A DNA stretch of 64,000 nucleotides from an uncultured Desulfobacterales bacterium (lineage in GTDB: Bacteria; Desulfobacterota; Desulfobacteria; Desulfobacterales; B30-G6). A program made the position numbers and the translations under genes. The stretch is taken from contig CAYVMI010000006.1 in NCBI GenBank assembly GCA_964452555.1, positions 9,880-73,879 of the forward strand. Reading direction: 5' to 3'. The notes beneath the pieces were generated by a model that saw nothing but the letters and a program-made list of their open reading frames with translations, was not told the origin of the DNA and did no database searches. Positions within the stretch are counted from its first letter, which is position 1. Every line of letters starts with the position of its first letter. Positions 56,860 through 64,000 of this stretch are shown here, in pieces.

Positions 56860-58167
56860 CTACGGTTTAGGATATGGATTCACATCAGCCAAATCTGGCC
56901 CTAGATAGGCGCGCTCATTCTCACCCAGAATACCCATGGCCAGGCACATGAGGGTCCAAATATGTACGGAATGGTACTTGCCTTCGAAATGTTCACCTAA
57001 ATCGTGAATTTGCGAATGACAGTTGTGACACGGGGTAATACAGTAATCTGCATTGGTTTCTACAATCTGTTCGAACTTTCTTTTCCCGTAATAACGACGC
57101 GCCTCCGGATACCCGGATTGCAGAAAGCCGCCGCCCCCGCCGCAGCAATAATTATTGGATCGGTTGGGGGCCATATCGACGAAGTTCTCTTCTCCTACAA
57201 TGGTTTTTACCACCATGCGAAGATCCTCGGCCACTGGATCGCCAAGCGACTTTCGAACCAACTGGCAGGGATCTTGAACCGTGAATGTTACCCCCAGGTC
57301 ATCATTCCAGCTGGAGTCAATGTTCAGTTTTCCCTCGCGTATCCACTGGGCATAATATTCGATGATCGATCTAACCTCGAAATTGTGTTCGATATTGAAT
57401 TTGTTCAGTCCGACCCGGACTGAGAAAAACTCATGACCTCACTCGGTGTTGAGCCAGACCTTGCACCCCAGGGCATCCACCGCCTCGGCTTTGATACGCA
57501 CGTTCTTTTCCCACTTCTCGTTATCGGCCAGAAACAAGCAATAATTTTCGGCGGCCCACCCCTTGGAGCCATAAGTCCAGTCAGCGCCAACCGTGTGCAA
57601 AATTTTCCATAACGGCACCATTTCATCCGGTTCCGTAACCGGTTCACGGGAGTTCTGGTTCAAGAAAAATTCAGCCCCGTGCTTGTCAATCGGCGCCTGC
57701 ATCTCCTTGAACTCAGGCTGTTCTTCCTGATACTCCTCCAACACGTCCTCAACGACGAATTGAAAATCCTCTACTGTCGCTCCCATGGCACTGCAGGTAT
57801 CATTTTTAAAGGCCATCTCACACGAGCCATGGATTCCCTTGGGTCGATCTTCCACGGGCCAGCGATTACGAACGTTGAAAACCAGGGCCGGGATATCGAT
57901 CTTCATGGGACAGGCAATGATACATCGCTGGCACATGGTACACATCCAGGCCCACTTCGAACTCAGCACCTCTTCATCCAGTCCCAGGGAGGCCATTCTT
58001 AAAAATTTACGCGGATCCATTTCCTCCAGCCCGGTTGCCGGGCACCCTGAGGAACACAACCCACAGGTCAAACAAAGATTTAAATTGCCCCCCTCGGGCA
58101 GGATTTTCATGACCTCTTCTTTGAATACGCTTTTCTTCTTATCTAACTTTAGAACCGGCAATGACAT
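56860..58167 (-). CDS. HdrD-like Fe-S oxidoreductase selenoprotein (2x4Fe-4S + Cys-rich CCG-type domains, UGA=Sec)
   Basis: ORFs 57439..58167 and 56860..57261 are in one frame. Read-through of the TGA at 57439-57441 plus 59 open codons gives 435 aa: CLTCGLCSSGCP, CTMCQRCIIACP, ...LNTE-U-GHEFF...DPCQL...NNYCCGGGGG...TPCHNCH. Confidence 0.8.
57406..57422 (-). promoter_or_regulatory. candidate SECIS stem-loop
   Basis: Perfect CAGUCCG-GGU-CGGACUG hairpin, or a 6-bp stem with a GGGUC loop, starting 17 nt after the UGA. Confidence 0.6.
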
Positions 58168-58243
58168 GTTTAACTCCTATCAATTTCAGCCAAATTTGAA
58201 CGGCTGTTACAGATCGACCTGGCATGCATCAAATCTGATTGGA

Positions 58244-58633
58244 TTACATGCCCAGCATCGAGCGAATGCTTTGGGAAATTTCCTCCGCCGAAGCAGGCTT
58301 GGCAATATAATCATCGGCCTCGGTGCTCATGCCGTCGGCGTGAGAATAACGGGTCGACGTGACATGCGATGCCACAGCAGTCAATAAAAGTACCGGGATT
58401 TCGCACAAATCGCCATCCGCTTTAAGTTCCTTGCACATTTCATATCCATCTTTTTCAGGCATCATAACATCAAGCACGATGGCATCGGGCGGATTGGCCT
58501 GGACTTTTTCCATGCCTTCCACCCCGTTATATGCCAGTTCAACTTCAAAGCCTTCCTTTTCCAGCTGCCCCTGAACGATGGAGCAGAAGTCAGGCTCATC
58601 ATCTACTACCAGAATTCTTTTTTTATCCGTCAT
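58244..58633 (-). CDS. receiver-only response regulator (CheY-like)
   Basis: ILVVDDEPD, IVLDVMMPEKDG and ADDYIAKP motifs. 129 aa with no output domain. Confidence 0.85.
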   Translation of the reverse strand: MTDKKRILVVDDEPDFCSIVQGQLEKEGFEVELAYNGVEGMEKVQANPPDAIVLDVMMPEKDGYEMCKELKADGDLCEIPVLLLTAVASHVTSTRYSHADGMSTEADDYIAKPASAEEISQSIRSMLGM

Positions 58634-58684: not shown

Positions 58685-59614
58685 TCACACACTGGGCCGT
58701 GGATATAAGCCCGCTGCTTCCACGATTTCAGGGACCATTTCCTCCCACTCGATGGCCATGACGTGAAAGCCACTGACGCCTTCCACTTCTTTCAACCGCT
58801 GAATATCCTCAATACAGATCTTGACACCCTCCTCGGCCTGTTTTTCCTTGGGCGTATCCGCTAAACGTTTAACCAGCTCATCGGGTACATCCATGCCGGG
58901 GACGCGGTTCTTCATATACTTGGCCATGCCGGCCGATTTCATGGGTGTCATGCCAGCCAGGATATAGACCTGCTCATGCAAACCACGGTCCCGGGCCAGT
59001 TTCATCCATTCCTCAAATTTATCCAGGTTGTAGATACACTGGGTCTGAATAAATTCGGCCCCGGCCTTAATCTTCTTAGCCAATCTGGGCACCCGTATTT
59101 CAAATGGGTCGGCAAAGGGATTGGCTGCGGCTCCCACAAACATCTGCGGCGGTCGTTTGATCTCATCGCCACCCAAGAATTTGCCTTCATCCCGCATATG
59201 GCGAACGGTCTGAACCAGCTGCATGGAGTCTAGATCGTGCACATTCTGGCCCTGGGCGCAGTCACCAAAACTTTGATGATCGCCGGAGAGACACAGAATA
59301 TTGGCAATATCATAGGATGCCGCCCCTAAAATATCACTCTGCAAGGCAATCCGGTTACGATCGCGTGTCACCATTTGCAATACCGGCTCCAAGCCCATCA
59401 GCTTGATACGAATACAGGCCGCCAGGCTACACAGACGCGTAACAGATGTCTGGTTATCGGTGATATTGATGGCATCAACATGGTCTTTTATCAGCTCTGC
59501 TTTTTTAGTAATCGCATCCGGATCACTGCCACGCGGCGGACCACATTCCGATGTAACGGCCATTTGACCGGAAGCTAATACTTTTTCCAAGCGACTCGGC
59601 GTTTTTGTTTTCAT
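58685..59614 (-). CDS. metF: methylenetetrahydrofolate reductase
   Basis: INITDNQTS, QMVTRDRN and LCLSGDH motifs of the MTHFR TIM barrel. Its start overlaps the metV stop. Confidence 0.9.
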   Translation of the reverse strand: MKTKTPSRLEKVLASGQMAVTSECGPPRGSDPDAITKKAELIKDHVDAINITDNQTSVTRLCSLAACIRIKLMGLEPVLQMVTRDRNRIALQSDILGAASYDIANILCLSGDHQSFGDCAQGQNVHDLDSMQLVQTVRHMRDEGKFLGGDEIKRPPQMFVGAAANPFADPFEIRVPRLAKKIKAGAEFIQTQCIYNLDKFEEWMKLARDRGLHEQVYILAGMTPMKSAGMAKYMKNRVPGMDVPDELVKRLADTPKEKQAEEGVKICIEDIQRLKEVEGVSGFHVMAIEWEEMVPEIVEAAGLYPRPSV

Positions 59615-60279
59615 GACTGCACATCCTCCCTCACAACTTTTCGCGGTCCTCCCGCCCGGTCGGTGGACCAGTCTTTAATCGGACTCAGCTCTTCATATTC
59701 ATCGAATCTTTCCAGGGCTTTGAGACGCTCAACAATCAGTTGCCAAGCACACACAAGCTCTTTGCTGATTTCGCACATGCCGTTGGTGGACCCACCACAG
59801 GGTCCATTCATCACACGCTTGGCACAGCGTGAAACCGGACAGATACCACCCGTGCGGGATAAAATGCATTGCCCGCAACCCTGGCATCGTTCGGTCCAGA
59901 GTCCGCGTTCCTCGGTTGCGCCCATAAAACAGGTGTTGACACCCGGATAAACAGGCATGGCCAAATACTTTTCGGCTGTGAACTGAACGCCGACGCCACA
60001 GGCTATCGATACAATGGCATCGTACTGGTCAATATCATTGCGGATCTCCTCCAGGTACTCATGGTCGCATTGGCGTTCGAGCGTTCGCTCATCGACCTTC
60101 TTTTCTGTGCCCTTGTTCAGAAAATACATGCGCAATGCCGATGCCAGGATGCCAACCTCCTTTTTTCCGCCGGCCTCACATACTGTTACACACTCATTGC
60201 ATCCTAGTATCAGTATCTTTTGGTGATCCTTTATGTCCTCAATAATCTCTTCAATCGGCTTCTTGTCGGCGACAATCAT
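59611..60279 (-). CDS. metV: MetV-like protein (MTHFR C-terminal Cys-rich domain)
   Basis: Cys-rich LGCNECVTVCEAGG and CQGCGQCILSRTGGICPVSRCAKRVMNGPCGG, as in acetogen-type MetV. Confidence 0.8.
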   Translation of the reverse strand: MIVADKKPIEEIIEDIKDHQKILILGCNECVTVCEAGGKKEVGILASALRMYFLNKGTEKKVDERTLERQCDHEYLEEIRNDIDQYDAIVSIACGVGVQFTAEKYLAMPVYPGVNTCFMGATEERGLWTERCQGCGQCILSRTGGICPVSRCAKRVMNGPCGGSTNGMCEISKELVCAWQLIVERLKALERFDEYEELSPIKDWSTDRAGGPRKVVREDVQS

Positions 60280-60418: not shown

Positions 60419-60850
60419 TCAGGCCGCGTCCTTTTTGGGCAGTTTGATGGGATTGGGACCGAGTTCCTTGATTTTTTTGACCATGTCCACAGCCACTTCC
60501 GCAAACATGGGGCCTTCGCTGGACGCCATATTGAACATTTCCACCCGCTCGCCGCCCACACCCACTGTATCCAGTATCTGCTTGGCCTGTTCGATCCGTT
60601 TGCGGGCTCTAAAATTGCCACCGGTATAATGACAATCACCTTCCATACATCCCACGGCATAAACACCGTCGGCCCCCTTTTCAAAAGATTTGAGGATATG
60701 CAGTATATCCACCTTTCCGGTGCAGGGTACCCGGATAATCTTGATGTTCGTCGGATACGTCAGTCGCATGGAACCTGCCAGGTCCGCGGCCGTATACCCT
60801 CAGAAATTACAACAAAAGGCGATGATTATAGGCTCAAATGTTTGGCTCAT
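60419..60850 (-). CDS. mvhD: MvhD/FlpD-like selenoprotein (UGA=Sec in CNxC motif)
   Basis: The ATG at 60850 forms an ATGA overlap with the upstream stop. Read-through of the TGA at 60800-60802 gives MSQTFEPIIIAFCCNF-U-GYTAADLAGSMRLTYPTNIKIIRVPCTGKVD...GADGVYAVGCMEGDCHY. Confidence 0.8.
60770..60785 (-). promoter_or_regulatory. candidate SECIS stem-loop
   Basis: GGACC-UGGCA-GGU(U)CC: a 5-bp stem with one bulged U, starting 15 nt after the UGA. Hand-folded. Confidence 0.5.
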
Positions 60851-63800
60851 AGGACTCCCTCCAGCAAGGATTCTATCTTGCAAATCAATTGATCGTCTTC
60901 ATACCAGTTTAGCTCAATGGCCTTTGCCGGACATTCCGCTGCACACACTCCACACCCGTGGCACAAGGCCACATCAATCTCACTAACCCCATCGGCATTG
61001 ATCACGGGAACTTCATAGGGACAGGAGCGTACACAAATCAGGCAGGAAGCGCACATGTCCTGTTTGACCTCGGCCGTTATGGCGGACAAGGTCAGCTCCG
61101 ATTGGGACAGGAAGGTAATAGCCCGCGAAGCGGCTGCATTGGCTTGGGATATGGTTTCAGAAATCAGCTTGGGACTGTGAGCGGTGCCACATACAAAAAT
61201 GCCCTCCGTGGCCATATCGACAGGCCGTAGTTTCACATGGGCTTCCATGAAAAAGCCCTCCGGTCCCCGGGCCAGCTTTACAATCGAAGCAAGCTCGGCC
61301 GTGTCCTCCGGCACCATCCCCGCACTCAAGGCCAGCACATCGGCCGTAACCTGCAAAGGCCGATTCAGTACATGATCATGAAAGGTAACATTCACCCCAT
61401 TTTCTGAAGATTCCACCTGGGGTGGATTGTCGGGTGTATAGCGGAAGAACAAAATGCCCGCTTTGCGGGCTTCTTTATAATACTCCTCCAACAAGCCATA
61501 GGTCCGGATATCCCGATACAACACATAGATATTGGCATCCGGATGCTCTTCACGAATATGAAGGGCATTTTTGATGGCATTCTGACAGCAGATCCGTGAA
61601 CAATTGGGATTGTCATCATTGCGCGAACCCACGCACTGGATCATGACGACGGAGTTTAAAGAACCCGGTTCCAGTGTTTCCATATGGTGGGTCAGTTCCA
61701 CCTGGGTCATCACGCGATTATCTTCGCCATATAGGTATTCTTTAGGCTCATATTCCTTGGCGCCGGTGGCCAGGATTACGACCCCGTGTTCAATCTTGCG
61801 TTCGTACATACCGGGCCCCACCAAAACTTCGGTCGTGAAATTTCCCTTGAAACCGGAAAAGCCCACGATGAGGGATTGGGTCAGCACCTGGATGTTATCA
61901 TGTGCGCCAACCCGTTCACCGAGTTCTGTCAGGTAGGGTTGGATTTGGGCTCCTTCAATAGTGGCCTTCAGATTGTTGGCCATACCGCCCAGTTGATTCT
62001 CCTTTTCCACCAGAAACACTTCGTATCCCTGATCCGCTAAACCCAGGGCGGAATTCATGCCGGCAATACCACCGCCCACCACCAATGCCTTTTGGTTGAC
62101 CGGTATGGTTTTTTCACCCAAGGGATTGAGAGTGGCTGCCCGGGCCACGGCCATGCGGACCAGATCTTTTGATTTCTCCGTCGCCTCTGCAGCCTCTTTC
62201 GCATGCACCCAGGAACCTTGATTGCGGATATTGGCCATTTCAAAAAGATACTTATTAAGCCCGCATTCGCGCAGGGTGTCCATGAAAATGGCCTCATGGG
62301 TCTTGGGAGTACAGGCCGCCACCACAATCCGATTGAGATTCTGCTCCTTGATAATCTCTTTCATCTGGTCTTGTGAATCCTGGGAGCAGGTAAACAGGTT
62401 CTGGGTCACATAGGTGACAAAGGGCAGGGTCTGGGCATATTCCTCCACAGCGGCCACATCCACAACTCCGGATATGTTAATGCCGCAATTGCAAACGAAT
62501 ACACCGATACGGGGTTCTTCCTGACTGACGTCGATCTCTGCGGGTAGCTCTACTGTTCGGGTCAAAGTATTGCGGGCTGCAGCCAGGCGTGTTCCGGCGG
62601 CACATGCAGCTGCCGAAGCCTCCGAAACCGAGCTGGGTATGTCTTTGGCTTCCTGAAATGATCCGCTGACATAAATCCCCGGACGCGAGGTTTCCACCGG
62701 GGAAAACGGCTCAGTCACCGCGAAATTATATTGATCCATCTCGACTTCGAGACGTTTGGCCAGATCGATGGTCTGTTCCGACACTTGCAAGCCCACCGAG
62801 AGGACCACCATATCGAAAATTTCTTCTTGGAGTTCGCCGGCCTCATCGGCATAGCGGATGCGTAGATCCTTATTCTCACCGATCTCGTCAATGGTGTGGA
62901 CTCGCGCCTTGACGAATTTCACTCCTTCCTGGTCTTTGGCGCGGACATAGTACTTTTCAAAATCCTTTCCAAAGGTGCGGATATCCATATTAAAGATGGT
63001 GCAGTCCAGATCTTCTTTGGAATGTTCCTTGGCCACCATGGCATCCTTGATGGCGTACATGCAGCAGACCGATGAGCAGTAACCATTGCCGCATTGATTG
63101 CTGTCGCGGGAACCGATGCACTGCAACCAGGCGATCTTTTTGGGTTCGGTTTCGTCCGACGGCTTGATCAGGTGCCCCATGGTGGGACCCGATGCACTCA
63201 GCATGCGCTCGAATTCCAGACTCGTCATCACATTCGGATTGGTCCCGTAGTGATAATGCCTTTCTAAATGACCGGGATCATAAGGCCGGGCGCCCGTGGA
63301 CAGCACCACGGACCCCACGGGAATCTGTCTTTCTTCAAGCACCTGTTCATGTTCCACGGCACCCGCCAGACAAGCCTCAACACACTGATAACATTCCGAG
63401 CAAATACCGCAGGAAAGACAACGATCAGATTCCTTTTTTGAGATGGCCTCGTCAAACCCCAGCTGGACTTCGTTAAAATTTGAAATCCGATCCTCGACTG
63501 CCAGGGTCGGCATCTTTTCCTTGGGTTGAATAACAGCATTATCCAATGGTATGTCATCCACCGTTGCCCAATGTTTTTCGCGTCCGGCATCCAGTTCCTG
63601 TCCCTGTACAAAACGGTCGATGGATATGGCTGCCTGCTTCCCGGCTTCCACCGCTTCCACCACCGTGGCCGGGCCGGTCACGGCGTCACCGCCTGAAAAA
63701 ATGTCCGGATCGTTTGATTGGAGCGTTACCGGATCCACTTGCATGGTGCCCCAGTCACTTAAAGTACAGGCACACTCATCGGTCAGACAGGCCCAGTCGG

Positions 63801-64000
63801 TTTCCTGGCCGATGGCGGGAATGACCGTATCCACCTCCATGGTAAATTCAGAGCCCTCGATGGGGACCGGCCTGCGTCTGCCGCTGGCATCCGGCTTTCC
63901 CAGCTCCATCTTGATGCATTCAATCGCCTTGACCTTGCCGTTCTCACCGATCACACGAATCGGGGTGGTTAAGGTCATGATATCGATGCCTTCTTCAGCG
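60847..64000 (-). CDS. hdrA: GltD-like / HdrA-like fusion flavo-Fe-S oxidoreductase, 5' end beyond window
   Basis: The frame is open to the window edge. N-terminal visible part is MELGKPDASGRRRPVPIEGSEF...VIPAIGQ...GGDAVTG (GltD/NfnB-like). Then come CLSCGICSECYQCVEAC, two HdrA-type segments (LQCIGSRD...CSSVCCMYA and IQCVGSRN...CSRICCQNA), VVGGGIAGMNSA and C-terminal CASCLICVRSCP/CHGCGVCAAECP. Confidence 0.85.
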   Translation of the reverse strand, partial: AEEGIDIMTLTTPIRVIGENGKVKAIECIKMELGKPDASGRRRPVPIEGSEFTMEVDTVIPAIGQETDWACLTDECACTLSDWGTMQVDPVTLQSNDPDIFSGGDAVTGPATVVEAVEAGKQAAISIDRFVQGQELDAGREKHWATVDDIPLDNAVIQPKEKMPTLAVEDRISNFNEVQLGFDEAISKKESDRCLSCGICSECYQCVEACLAGAVEHEQVLEERQIPVGSVVLSTGARPYDPGHLERHYHYGTNPNVMTSLEFERMLSASGPTMGHLIKPSDETEPKKIAWLQCIGSRDSNQCGNGYCSSVCCMYAIKDAMVAKEHSKEDLDCTIFNMDIRTFGKDFEKYYVRAKDQEGVKFVKARVHTIDEIGENKDLRIRYADEAGELQEEIFDMVVLSVGLQVSEQTIDLAKRLEVEMDQYNFAVTEPFSPVETSRPGIYVSGSFQEAKDIPSSVSEASAAACAAGTRLAAARNTLTRTVELPAEIDVSQEEPRIGVFVCNCGINISGVVDVAAVEEYAQTLPFVTYVTQNLFTCSQDSQDQMKEIIKEQNLNRIVVAACTPKTHEAIFMDTLRECGLNKYLFEMANIRNQGSWVHAKEAAEATEKSKDLVRMAVARAATLNPLGEKTIPVNQKALVVGGGIAGMNSALGLADQGYEVFLVEKENQLGGMANNLKATIEGAQIQPYLTELGERVGAHDNIQVLTQSLIVGFSGFKGNFTTEVLVGPGMYERKIEHGVVILATGAKEYEPKEYLYGEDNRVMTQVELTHHMETLEPGSLNSVVMIQCVGSRNDDNPNCSRICCQNAIKNALHIREEHPDANIYVLYRDIRTYGLLEEYYKEARKAGILFFRYTPDNPPQVESSENGVNVTFHDHVLNRPLQVTADVLALSAGMVPEDTAELASIVKLARGPEGFFMEAHVKLRPVDMATEGIFVCGTAHSPKLISETISQANAAASRAITFLSQSELTLSAITAEVKQDMCASCLICVRSCPYEVPVINADGVSEIDVALCHGCGVCAAECPAKAIELNWYEDDQLICKIESLLEGVL

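Follow-up and report, generated by a model that had tools for sequence, protein, structure and literature searches.

A probable selenocysteine codon in an HdrD-like Fe-S oxidoreductase gene of an uncultured Desulfobacterales bacterium, a member of the known GlpC-like selenoprotein family linked to metF, metV, mvhD and hdrL

Introduction

Does the TGA triplet that divides an HdrD-like reading frame of an uncultured Desulfobacterales bacterium end one protein and leave a second open reading frame behind it, or is it translated as selenocysteine (Sec) within a single gene? The question arose from a first-pass annotation of a 64,000-nucleotide stretch of DNA (the window, to whose positions all coordinates below refer), and our analysis gives the second answer a probability of roughly 0.93. 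Positions 56860-58167 would then form a single gene for a soluble HdrD-like Fe-S protein of 435 residues, with UGA codon 243 decoded as Sec via SelB and tRNA-Sec and a SECIS hairpin. The protein is a real but ordinary selenoprotein, as both its family and its Sec site have been described before; the point added by our analysis is the linkage of the selenoprotein gene to metF, metV, mvhD and hdrL.

One reading frame across the TGA

The complete gene (56860..58167, minus strand) has 435 codons followed by a TAG stop and encodes an HdrD-like Fe-S oxidoreductase, i.e. a fusion of HdrC and HdrB parts. A Shine-Dalgarno motif, AGGAG, was read from the sequence at 58174..58178 (minus strand), 6 nt 5′ of the ATG at 58167. 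Translation confirmed the layout given by the first-pass annotation: the N-terminal ORF (57439..58167, minus strand, 242 aa) closes with the residues KVWLNTE before the TGA at 57441-57439, the C-terminal ORF (56860..57261) shares its frame, 59 open codons lie between the two, and read-through of the TGA yields 435 aa before the TAG. There is only one in-frame TGA within 56860-58167, at 57439-57441. That the locus holds one gene and not two, as had been proposed, agrees with profile searches, in which the HmcF, TmcB and DsrK profiles are colinear with residues 29-398 and uninterrupted across the TGA, and with the Cys-containing homologues, which are single ORFs; among 2908 homologues retrieved, the best are about 435 aa long and form one uninterrupted ORF (JGI name ‘Fe-S oxidoreductase’).

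Sequencing error or a strain artefact could be ruled out, since the TGA region is identical in independent metagenome assemblies from three studies, without differences over the TGA, and 65 homologous TGAs were found elsewhere; in two of the four runs the whole gene lies on a single contig. All sequencing runs found to cover the stretch were DNA metagenomes. Gene calls recorded for the same contig already include the truncated 242-aa product, so the predicted ease of mis-annotation is borne out by the record itself.

Conservation of the UGA codon and the selenocysteine machinery

Codon 243 (UGA, 57439..57441, minus strand) lies in the motif NTE-U-GH, and its assignment to Sec draws on conservation of the Cys/TGA column, on the Sec machinery of the genome and on the catalogued motif ‘UGH’. 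The first-pass annotation had proposed looking for Cys at the U column of a homologue alignment, and there it is: Cys is invariant at column 243 in the first 20 and then in 117 full-length Cys homologues (NTE-C-GH), so that the in-frame UGA aligns with the Cys of its homologues and is flanked on both sides by conservation at the protein level. The Sec-type loci inspected across the phylum, at 35-86% identity, carry the TGA within [T/P]E-U-GH in 65 cases out of 65. In the same order a match was found in 165 of 201 genomes, with exactly one in-frame TGA in each of the approximately 150 best matches listed, and the Sec form is the majority form in Desulfobacterales, where Desulfonema magnum (locus L033) has a 76% identical orthologue; phylum-wide, about two-thirds of the matches listed (down to 35% identity) have one in-frame TGA. 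The genome encodes tRNA-Sec (75.4 bits versus a cut-off of 47), SelB (375.6 versus 242) and SelA (607 versus 268), all three above their curated cut-offs, and neighbours of the gene, hdrL and metF among them, still end in a normal TGA stop.

A covarying SECIS-type hairpin

The perfect hairpin noted earlier at 57406-57422 (CAGUCCG-GGU-CGGACUG) is present as given, and an extra U-A pair widens its stem to 57405-57423. The resulting apical hairpin of a putative SECIS element (57405..57423, minus strand) has an 8-bp stem, UCAGUCCG/CGGACUGA, and a GGU loop, and begins 16 nt 3′ of the UGA. Folded alone, the segment reaches –19.9 kcal/mol with z = –2.5, and 2 of 200 shuffles are as stable, so the hairpin on its own is only mildly unusual. 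Once comparative data are included, it can be placed far beyond chance. Across the family alignment 85% of stem cells are paired, against 73.7% in shuffles (0/500), compensatory changes occur in six of the eight stem pairs, and double-change cells stand at 61 versus 26.9, with slid controls at or below 54%. Among 30 orthologues the synonymous codon entropy of the hairpin region is 0.13 bits versus a gene mean of 1.30, the lowest windows of the gene, and the codons themselves hardly vary (V as GTC in 29/29, R as CGG in 30/30, V as GTC in 25/25, G as GGA in 29/30 and L as CTG in 28/30). Cys forms are without the hairpin, and L084 (identical to P0002), the closest sister of the Cys form, keeps the residues R-V-G-L while their codons have drifted.

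SECIS elements of the bSECISearch-type consensus form a stem-loop right after the UGA, with the apical loop some 16–37 nt away and a G in the first loop positions. The GGU loop starts 24 nt 3′ of the UGA and its first column is a G conserved at 90% or more; in loop distance, loop G, covariation and frozen synonymous sites, the hairpin answers to such an element. A SECIS role for it is thus backed by covariation and synonymous-site conservation, and the hairpin would recruit SelB and tRNA-Sec to UGA 243. A lower helix seen in the single-sequence fold prediction is poorly conserved, being only 60% paired across the family, and was for that reason dropped as a part of the SECIS element.

Readings of the UGA other than selenocysteine have to be set against these data. 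Were the TGA a true stop, the locus would encode an HdrC-like protein of 242 aa, and the CCG part behind it would either have its own translation start, the TTG at 57261, or go untranslated, as in a pseudogene. Gene callers do return exactly this 242-aa product and the TTG is there, but it has no Shine-Dalgarno sequence, the 59 intervening codons are open and conserved at the protein level in all homologues, a covarying hairpin follows the TGA, and the Cys homologues run through as single ORFs; a TGA held in one column over 65 loci at 35-86% identity is, moreover, not expected of a pseudogene. We therefore regard a true stop as very improbable. A reassigned code or near-cognate suppression, with Trp, Cys or Gly inserted at the UGA, would also yield the full-length protein, and UGA is reassigned in some uncultured bacteria. 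Against it stand the use of UGA to end the neighbours hdrL and metF, the presence of genes for tRNA-Sec, SelA and SelB, an invariant redox-type Cys as the homologous residue, a hairpin of the SelB type, under selection, whose G-rich loop is canonically spaced from the UGA, and the cataloguing of the family as a selenoprotein family, which together leave this reading scarcely any weight. The pseudogene, two-gene and alternative-code readings were accordingly rejected on the conserved TGA column, the hairpin and the Sec machinery, and the first-pass interpretation of the UGA as Sec holds up on the 117 invariant-Cys homologues, the 65/65 TGA loci, the covarying hairpin and the machinery.

Domain architecture and the place of the selenocysteine

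The protein begins with an HdrC-like ferredoxin domain (residues 29-90; 57898..58083, minus strand; Pfam Fer4_8/Fer4_17/Fer4_9) that has two CxxCxxCxxxC motifs, each for a cubane [4Fe-4S] cluster. It matches HdrC chains in the PDB at E = 1e-13, and its eight Cys are all invariant in the 117 homologues. At the other end stands a complete C-terminal CCG domain (residues 296-387; 57007..57282, minus strand; Pfam PF02754, E = 6.7e-13), in which C301, C341, C342, C380 and C383, likewise invariant in all 117 homologues, each align with a Cys of the equivalent domain of HdrB (5odc_B). One non-cubane [4Fe-4S] cluster is predicted to be bound here. Between the two, a degenerate N-terminal CCG-like domain (residues ~165-260; 57388..57675, minus strand), delimited by AF2 topology and alignment with EtfD, contains C210 (ENYC), C235 and U243. 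As this N-terminal CCG domain has lost the five-Cys motif, the protein is expected to have one non-cubane cluster, not two.

Where exactly U243 falls within a CCG motif rests on the EtfD alignment and the model topology, since an hhalign comparison of the two halves, N-terminal and C-terminal CCG, detected no significant internal repeat (probability 0.4%). A Pfam scan of the N-terminal CCG-like half in five family members gave no CCG match at E up to 10, and when the full-length protein was searched against PDB sequences, alignments covered no more than its HdrC part and final CCG domain. Foldseek gave matches to EtfD (TMq 0.70, the top match), HdrB and HdrC. In the AF2 model the N-terminal topology, beta-alpha-alpha-beta-alpha-alpha-beta-alpha, is repeated in the C-terminal domain; in a profile alignment to Mycobacterium smegmatis EtfD the Sec falls on the first Cys of ‘VTCPHC’; and by both, ‘ENYC210’ corresponds to ‘NNYCC341/342’. 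U243 thus probably corresponds less to part of a ‘CCG’ than to the first Cys of the CxxC with which the degenerate N-terminal CCG domain ends. The first-pass annotation had put the Sec in a degenerate, CCG-like first half, at or near a substrate or non-cubane cluster site, and this broader placement, in the putative active-site cleft, still stands as an inference; its equation of TE-U-G with the CCG motif is probably wrong, as the EtfD alignment and the AF2 topology point to the CxxC. C210 and C235 vary in distant Sec subfamilies, leaving U243, in the invariant motif E-U/C-G-H, as the only universal one of the three in the N-terminal domain, and a fixed resolving Cys partner is therefore lacking.

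Family assignment

A ‘Fe-S oxidoreductase (GlpC)-like’ selenoprotein family, catalogued in sulfate-reducing bacteria, was described from Deltaproteobacteria by Zhang et al. 2006 (PMC1794560), and a ‘Fe-S oxidoreductase-like protein’ with the Sec motif UGH is listed in PMC13188914. The gene studied here carries that motif, as NTE-U-GH, together with the 4Fe-4S dicluster and Cys-rich CCG domains of a COG0247-type protein (Pfam Fer4_8, CCG), and by motif and architecture it can be assigned to this known family. The first-pass assignment to a known selenoprotein class, an HdrD/GlpC-type Fe-S oxidoreductase, is in line with these two catalogues.

Narrower identities were tried and rejected. HdrB or HdrD sensu stricto calls for two Cx31-39CCx35-36CxxC motifs with ten Cys, and the N-terminal half lacks at least three of its five Cys. 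The NCBIfam equivalogs HmcF (169.9 versus a cut-off of 750), TmcB (164 versus 735) and DsrK (124 versus 400) all fall short, as does GlpC proper (TIGR03379, 39.2 bits versus 279.9), for which the neighbours are also wrong, being metF, metV, mvhD and hdrL in place of glpA and glpB. Orthology to BamD was not adopted, because neither bamB nor bamC lies nearby.

Gene neighbourhood and a possible link to MetFV-Hdr complexes

Upstream of the selenoprotein gene on the minus strand, a receiver-only response regulator (58244..58633; Pfam Response_reg) is followed by metF, for methylenetetrahydrofolate reductase (58685..59614; Pfam MTHFR, E = 3e-36), and by metV, for an MTHFR C-terminal-domain Fe-S subunit (59611..60279; Pfam PF12225, E = 4e-36). 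Beyond these lie mvhD/flpD (60419..60850, minus strand), itself a selenoprotein gene whose ATG at 60850 overlaps the hdrL stop (ATGA) and whose codon 17 is a Sec UGA (60800-60802), Pfam FlpD profile positions 1-123 being covered only with the TGA read through, and the 3′ part of an hdrL-type gene (60847..64000, minus strand). By its domain matches the latter encodes an HdrA part joined to a GltD-like module for NAD(P)H, 1485 aa in full; it runs past the window edge, where it has a Sec UGA of its own in the motif DCAMU-IISPK (L046:4281-4283).

The order MetF-RR-HdrD-AroE is kept in 19 of 29 orthologous loci, and within flanks of ~1.5 kb MetF (with the response regulator, or with MvhD and MetV) adjoins the gene in 21 of the 29 and MvhD alone in two more. 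Three close paralogues in the genome all lie within hdrA/L-mvhD-metV-metF clusters. The gene set of a MetFV-HdrABC-MvhD complex is thereby found clustered, with metF, metV, an hdrA-type gene, mvhD and an HdrB/HdrC equivalent. This conserved linkage suggests that the selenoprotein takes the part of HdrBC, as output subunit, in a methylene-/methyl-THF oxidoreductase of the MetFV-Hdr type that belongs to the Wood-Ljungdahl pathway, and would form a complex with MetF, MetV, MvhD and HdrL.

A possible role for the selenocysteine

In such a complex, electrons might pass from the HdrA/HdrL flavoprotein via MvhD and the two cubane clusters to the non-cubane cluster. The selenolate would lie at the place of HdrB's second (distal) cluster, where it might act as nucleophile or resolving residue in the reduction of a disulfide- or persulfide-type substrate; this spatial position and catalytic role we infer from topology only. 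Taken further, the Sec would replace the lost distal non-cubane cluster and be the nucleophile of a one-cluster, ferredoxin:thioredoxin-reductase-like disulfide/persulfide reductase, and thereby the site, long sought, at which methylene-THF oxidoreductases of the MetFV-Hdr type handle their second substrate, a tentative proposal that we consider unlikely as it stands. If true, it would mean that complete-oxidising sulfate reducers couple the difficult oxidation of methyl-THF to a thiol-based acceptor (DsrC or a low-molecular-weight disulfide).

A real Sec need not be a disulfide-reducing nucleophile. It may instead ligate a remodelled distal Fe-S cluster, or its subunit may only pass a high-potential electron on to another protein, for instance an ETF; this is the case for BamD, whose degenerate distal site goes with electron transfer to ETF rather than to a disulfide (bioRxiv 10.64898/2026.04.10.717634). 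The best structural match is EtfD, and U243 has no universally conserved partner Cys, both of which fit. On the other hand, a Sec that is exchanged invariantly for Cys alone is typical of thiol redox catalysis or metal ligation and not of a passive surface, the conserved Cys of the N-terminal domain are too few for a cluster, U243 alone being universal, and the gene cluster contains no etf genes; we hold such a role to be possible, if somewhat on the unlikely side.

Standard gene callers split or truncate the gene, and NCBIfam models all stay below their cut-offs, so full-length Sec forms are missing from protein databases and homology searches are distorted in turn: the best database match is a 67% identical Cys paralogue, though 86% identical Sec orthologues exist. 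The linkage to metF, metV, mvhD and hdrL in three paralogous clusters provides a testable lead as to which MetFV-Hdr subunit takes the high-potential electron. These database and synteny points leave the classification unchanged, as the family and its Sec site were already described.

Comparison with known systems

In the heterodisulfide reductase of methanogens (PDB 5ODC, 7BKB, 8RVU), HdrC corresponds to about the N-terminal third of the protein and the HdrB fold to its C-terminal two-thirds, whereas here both are fused in one chain. Unlike that of HdrB, the N-terminal CCG domain has no five-Cys motif and carries the Sec at one former ligand position, and the methanogen substrate CoM-S-S-CoB is not expected for a protein of a bacterial host. 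DsrK, HmcF and TmcB of sulfate reducers, the best NCBIfam matches, are colinear over nearly the full length and likewise have two cubane motifs and one catalytic C-terminal CCG domain, but their membrane partner genes (dsrM, hmcE, tmcC) are absent near the gene. To our knowledge, canonical DsrK, HmcF and TmcB are not selenoproteins.

BamD of class II benzoyl-CoA reductase and mycobacterial EtfD (PDB 9OJN) are also HdrBC-fusion or HdrD-like subunits in which, as here, the proximal non-cubane cluster is kept and the distal site is variable or degenerate. In BamD, whose acceptor is ETF, the proximal cluster is retained, and most homologues have a remodelled distal cluster or none (bioRxiv 10.64898/2026.04.10.717634). 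Both have electron-transferring flavoproteins as partners, EtfD is a membrane-anchored protein of 1042 aa, and neither has a Sec reported at the position of U243.

The GlpC-like selenoprotein family, whose reference protein is WP_174406253.1, is close to the gene by motif and architecture. The two share the E-U-G-H motif, the COG0247-type architecture, the phylum and the adjacency to Sec-containing hdrA and mvhD/frhD; the published operon is the hydrogenase-linked glpC-hdrA-frhD-frhG-frhA, whereas in this genome, as for most orthologues, the partners are metF, metV and the receiver protein. HdrD4 of Desulfobacterium autotrophicum HRM2, annotated as a selenoprotein by Strittmatter et al. 2009 (PMC2702500), is also a soluble HdrD-type protein with HdrC- and HdrB-homologous domains and no membrane part, and comes from a complete-oxidising sulfate reducer of the Desulfobacterales with many Sec-containing Hdr paralogues; the likeness is one of description. 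That paper gives no Sec position for hdrD4 and does not discuss a metFV link. The MetFV-HdrABC-MvhD methylene-THF reductase of Moorella thermoacetica (PMC5861303, reviewing Mock et al. 2014) has a matching gene set, which is clustered here too. In contrast to Moorella, a single fused chain stands in for HdrB and HdrC, the HdrA component is an HdrL-type fusion that includes a GltD-like module, Sec occurs in three of the subunits and the gene cluster encloses a receiver protein, and the host, a marine member of the Desulfobacterales, probably runs the pathway in the oxidative direction.

One gene split by an in-frame UGA

The HdrD-like Fe-S oxidoreductase gene at 56860-58167 (minus strand) is a real feature, and the first-pass annotation, which had described two same-frame ORFs and a hairpin, was accurate in its coordinates and right in its main claim. 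The ORF at 57439..58167 (242 aa) ends in KVWLNTE before the TGA, and the ORF at 56860..57261 follows in the same frame on the same strand, so that reading through the TGA yields 435 residues (...NTE-U-GHEFFSVRVGLNKF...). An AGGAG box lies 6 nt ahead of the ATG at 58167, and inspection of the sequence found none upstream of the internal TTG. That this is a single gene is borne out by the HmcF, TmcB and DsrK profiles, each giving one alignment (residues 29-398) that runs across the TGA, and by a database search returning 2908 homologues, the best of which are uninterrupted, about 435 aa long and 61-67% identical.

Selenocysteine at codon 243

Opposite the UGA (57439-57441, codon 243), alignments of 20 and then 117 homologues place an invariant Cys in N-T-E-C-G-H. 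When genomes of the same order were searched with stops read through, 165 of 201 gave a match, and the roughly 150 best matches among those listed (70-86% identity) contain exactly one in-frame TGA each; this genome holds three copies of that kind. Sampling the whole phylum gave a single TGA in about two-thirds of the matches listed, at identities as low as 35%. We extracted 65 TGA-containing loci from the genome searches for inspection, and in all 65 the TGA lies within [T/P]E-TGA-GH. Since TGA-type matches prevail in such searches, the Sec form is the common one, missing from protein databases because gene callers halt at the UGA. The predicted ease of mis-annotation is evident in this very contig, whose protein on record is the 242-aa fragment.

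Genes for tRNA-Sec (75.4 bits, cut-off 47), SelB (375.6 bits) and SelA (607 bits) are present in the genome, and neighbouring genes still terminate at TGA. Independently assembled metagenome contigs from three studies show no difference across the TGA region, and the whole gene is spanned in two of four metagenome runs. The JGI protein P0003 (532 aa), a database homologue, stops at ...WLNTE. Its CCG motif has a deletion, and past residue ~420 the family sequence restarts from about residue 125; a tandem or a mis-assembly of two family genes is the probable explanation, the second copy being cut at its Sec UGA.

The downstream hairpin is conserved as a SECIS element

The hairpin (57406-57422, minus strand; 57405-57423 with one more U-A pair) has a GGU loop and lies 16 nt from the UGA. 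Its role as a SECIS is supported by its fold, by frozen stem codons and by compensatory changes. Folded alone, it reaches -19.9 kcal/mol (z = -2.5). Across 30 orthologues, synonymous sites in the stem are almost frozen (V as GTC in 29/29, R as CGG in 30/30, V as GTC in 25/25, G as GGA in 29/30 and L as CTG in 28/30), with a mean codon entropy of 0.13 bits versus 1.30 over the gene as a whole. The ten six-codon windows of lowest entropy all begin at codons 244-254, right behind the UGA.

In 64 distinct sequences drawn from across the family, the stem varies in sequence with pairing kept (GUCCG/CGGAC, AUCCA/UGGAU, ACCCU/GGGGU, GACCA/UGGUC, AACUA/UAGUU). Pairing holds in 85% of cells; column shuffles give 73.7%, and none of 500 is as high. 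Cells changed on both sides number 61 versus 26.9, and compensatory change is seen in six of eight stem pairs. No slid control exceeds 54%, the -1 value being due to a subfamily whose loop is 4 nt long. In at least 90% of sequences the loop opens with G, and the lower helix of the single-sequence fold is poorly conserved across the family. A metagenome contig from another organism (run X6, record 11) matches the window only over 57389-57427, the surroundings of the hairpin (39 nt, 1 mismatch), its sequence diverging to either side, which illustrates how much more strongly the SECIS is conserved than the remainder of the gene.

The Cys form nearest the window's clade, L084 (G395:C89:7777-9042, identical to database protein P0002), offers a natural control: residues F-R-V-G-L, which the SECIS imposes, are retained, their codons have drifted to TTC AGG GTT GGA CTA, and no hairpin is left. 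This form appears to have converted from Sec to Cys recently, its SECIS now decaying. In a quick midpoint-rooted FastTree phylogeny, with Cys forms sampled from best matches only, Sec forms make up all the deep branches, with the Cys forms nested (4-6 state changes), a pattern that fits repeated Sec-to-Cys replacement without being decisive.

Domain architecture and position of the selenocysteine

Pfam assigns a 4Fe-4S dicluster domain to residues 29-90 and one CCG domain to residues 296-387, and the N-terminus matches PDB HdrC chains (E = 1e-13). The AlphaFold2 model, a confident one (118 sequences; pLDDT 90, pTM 0.88), is closest to M. smegmatis EtfD (TMq 0.70), followed by HdrB and HdrC chains from the heterodisulfide reductases of methanogens. 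With a profile of the C-terminal two-thirds, the C-terminal CCG domain aligns Cys-for-Cys (DPC, CCGGGGG, PCxxC) with the second CCG domain of HdrB 5odc_B. The Sec region (about residues 165-260) has the same modelled order of secondary structure as the C-terminal CCG domain and has lost most of its Cys; Pfam makes no detection in this N-terminal CCG-like half, and hhalign finds no significant repeat there. The close family conserves without exception the eight cubane ligands, C116, C210, C243 (U) and the five Cys of the C-terminal CCG domain. Distant Sec subfamilies have other residues in place of C210 and C235, which leaves the E-U-G-H residue as the one universal position in the N-terminal CCG-like half.

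The first-pass annotation equated TE-U-G with CCG, which three observations oppose. In the EtfD alignment, Sec pairs with the leading Cys of VTCPHC, which is the CxxC closing the first CCG domain of EtfD; U243 in the model comes after a beta-strand and starts a helix, just as C380 does; and ENYC210 mirrors NNYCC341/342. On these grounds we consider U243, with moderate confidence, to be the counterpart of the first CxxC cysteine of the N-terminal CCG domain.

Gene neighbourhood and paralogues

Going downstream on the minus strand, the order is MTHFR-like, hdrL, mvhD, metV, metF, a receiver-only response regulator (58244-58633, between metF and the selenoprotein gene), this gene and aroE. The hdrL gene (HdrA plus GltD-like module, 1485 aa; 3' part at 60847-64000, minus strand) has its Sec UGA just outside the window (about 65101-65103; L046:4281-4283) in ...FPTNDCAM-U-IISPKL..., the classical HdrA Sec site. 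The mvhD/flpD gene (60419-60850, minus strand) begins with an ATG at 60850 that shares the sequence ATGA with the stop of hdrL. ORF calling truncates this gene at its Sec UGA (codon 17, 60800-60802, in ...FCCNF-U-GYTAADLAG); Pfam FlpD profile positions 1-123 are covered only with read-through, and a hairpin (GGACCU-GGC-AGGUUC) starts 17 nt past the UGA. As hdrL also carries its own in-frame UGA, three of the seven cluster genes are selenoprotein genes.

Two Sec paralogues (both 72-73% identical) lie on contig 18 (G000:C18:62031-63314; L047:7017-8336), in hdrL(Sec)-mvhD(Sec)-hdrD(Sec)-metV-metF, and on contig 8 (G000:C8:76508-77794; L048:6464-7816), in hdrD(Sec)-MTHFR-like-hdrA-mvhD-metV-metF-receiver. 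Because each close copy has its own hdrA/L-mvhD-metV-metF cluster, the genome holds three parallel MetFV-Hdr modules. Among 29 orthologous loci of other genomes, sampled with roughly 1.5-kb flanks, 19 show MetF-receiver-HdrD-AroE and two HdrA-MvhD-HdrD-MetV-MetF. The recurrence of the former order, together with the receiver that ends the contig-8 cluster, shows that the receiver linkage is conserved and not accidental.

A formate dehydrogenase alpha subunit gene with canonical Sec (...HCARL-U-HSSTV...; L047:10957-13749, minus strand) adjoins the contig-18 cluster. A distant fourth paralogue (36% identity; G000:C9:19451-20599, L078) has a PE-U-GH Sec site and the hairpin AACCCG-GUC-CGGGUU; its second TGA, the last codon of the matched stretch, is probably its own stop. 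Locus L037 (G061:C106) holds a second, distant Sec family member near the orthologue (PE-U-GH; hairpin GACCA-GGUU-UGGUC), so family genes can occur in tandem.

Possible role of the selenolate

Electrons would pass from the HdrA/HdrL flavin through the two cubane clusters to a single non-cubane cluster. The selenolate, presumably placed where HdrB carries its second cluster, would then serve as the attacking or resolving group for a substrate of disulfide or persulfide type bound between itself and the non-cubane cluster, a chemistry akin to that of ferredoxin:thioredoxin reductase. The rival reading, which we consider less likely than not, is that the subunit only transfers electrons or that the selenium ligates a remodelled cluster. 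BamD sets the precedent, its distal site being degenerate in most homologues and an ETF its acceptor (bioRxiv 10.64898/2026.04.10.717634).

Comparison with known systems

The selenoprotein class is already known, as the first-pass annotation had suggested. 'Fe-S oxidoreductase (GlpC)' was described in Deltaproteobacteria adjoining Sec-containing hdrA and frhD (Zhang et al. 2006, PMC1794560) and found again in Olavius symbionts (PMC1976440); a 2026 review lists the family with the Sec motif UGH (PMC13188914), and HdrD4 is annotated as a selenoprotein in the genome paper of D. autotrophicum (PMC2702500). Our gene matches the catalogued family in motif, architecture, taxon and neighbours. DsrK, HmcF, TmcB and GlpC proper were rejected, the gene falling below their curated cut-offs; it belongs to the broad HdrD/COG0247 superfamily and the catalogued Sec family and is not one of these equivalogs. 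What the present analysis adds is proof of the SECIS by comparison, the extent of mis-annotation, the corrected Sec motif assignment and the conserved metFV link. The gene set is that of the Moorella MetFV-HdrABC-MvhD methylene-THF reductase (PMC5861303), except that here HdrB and HdrC are fused.
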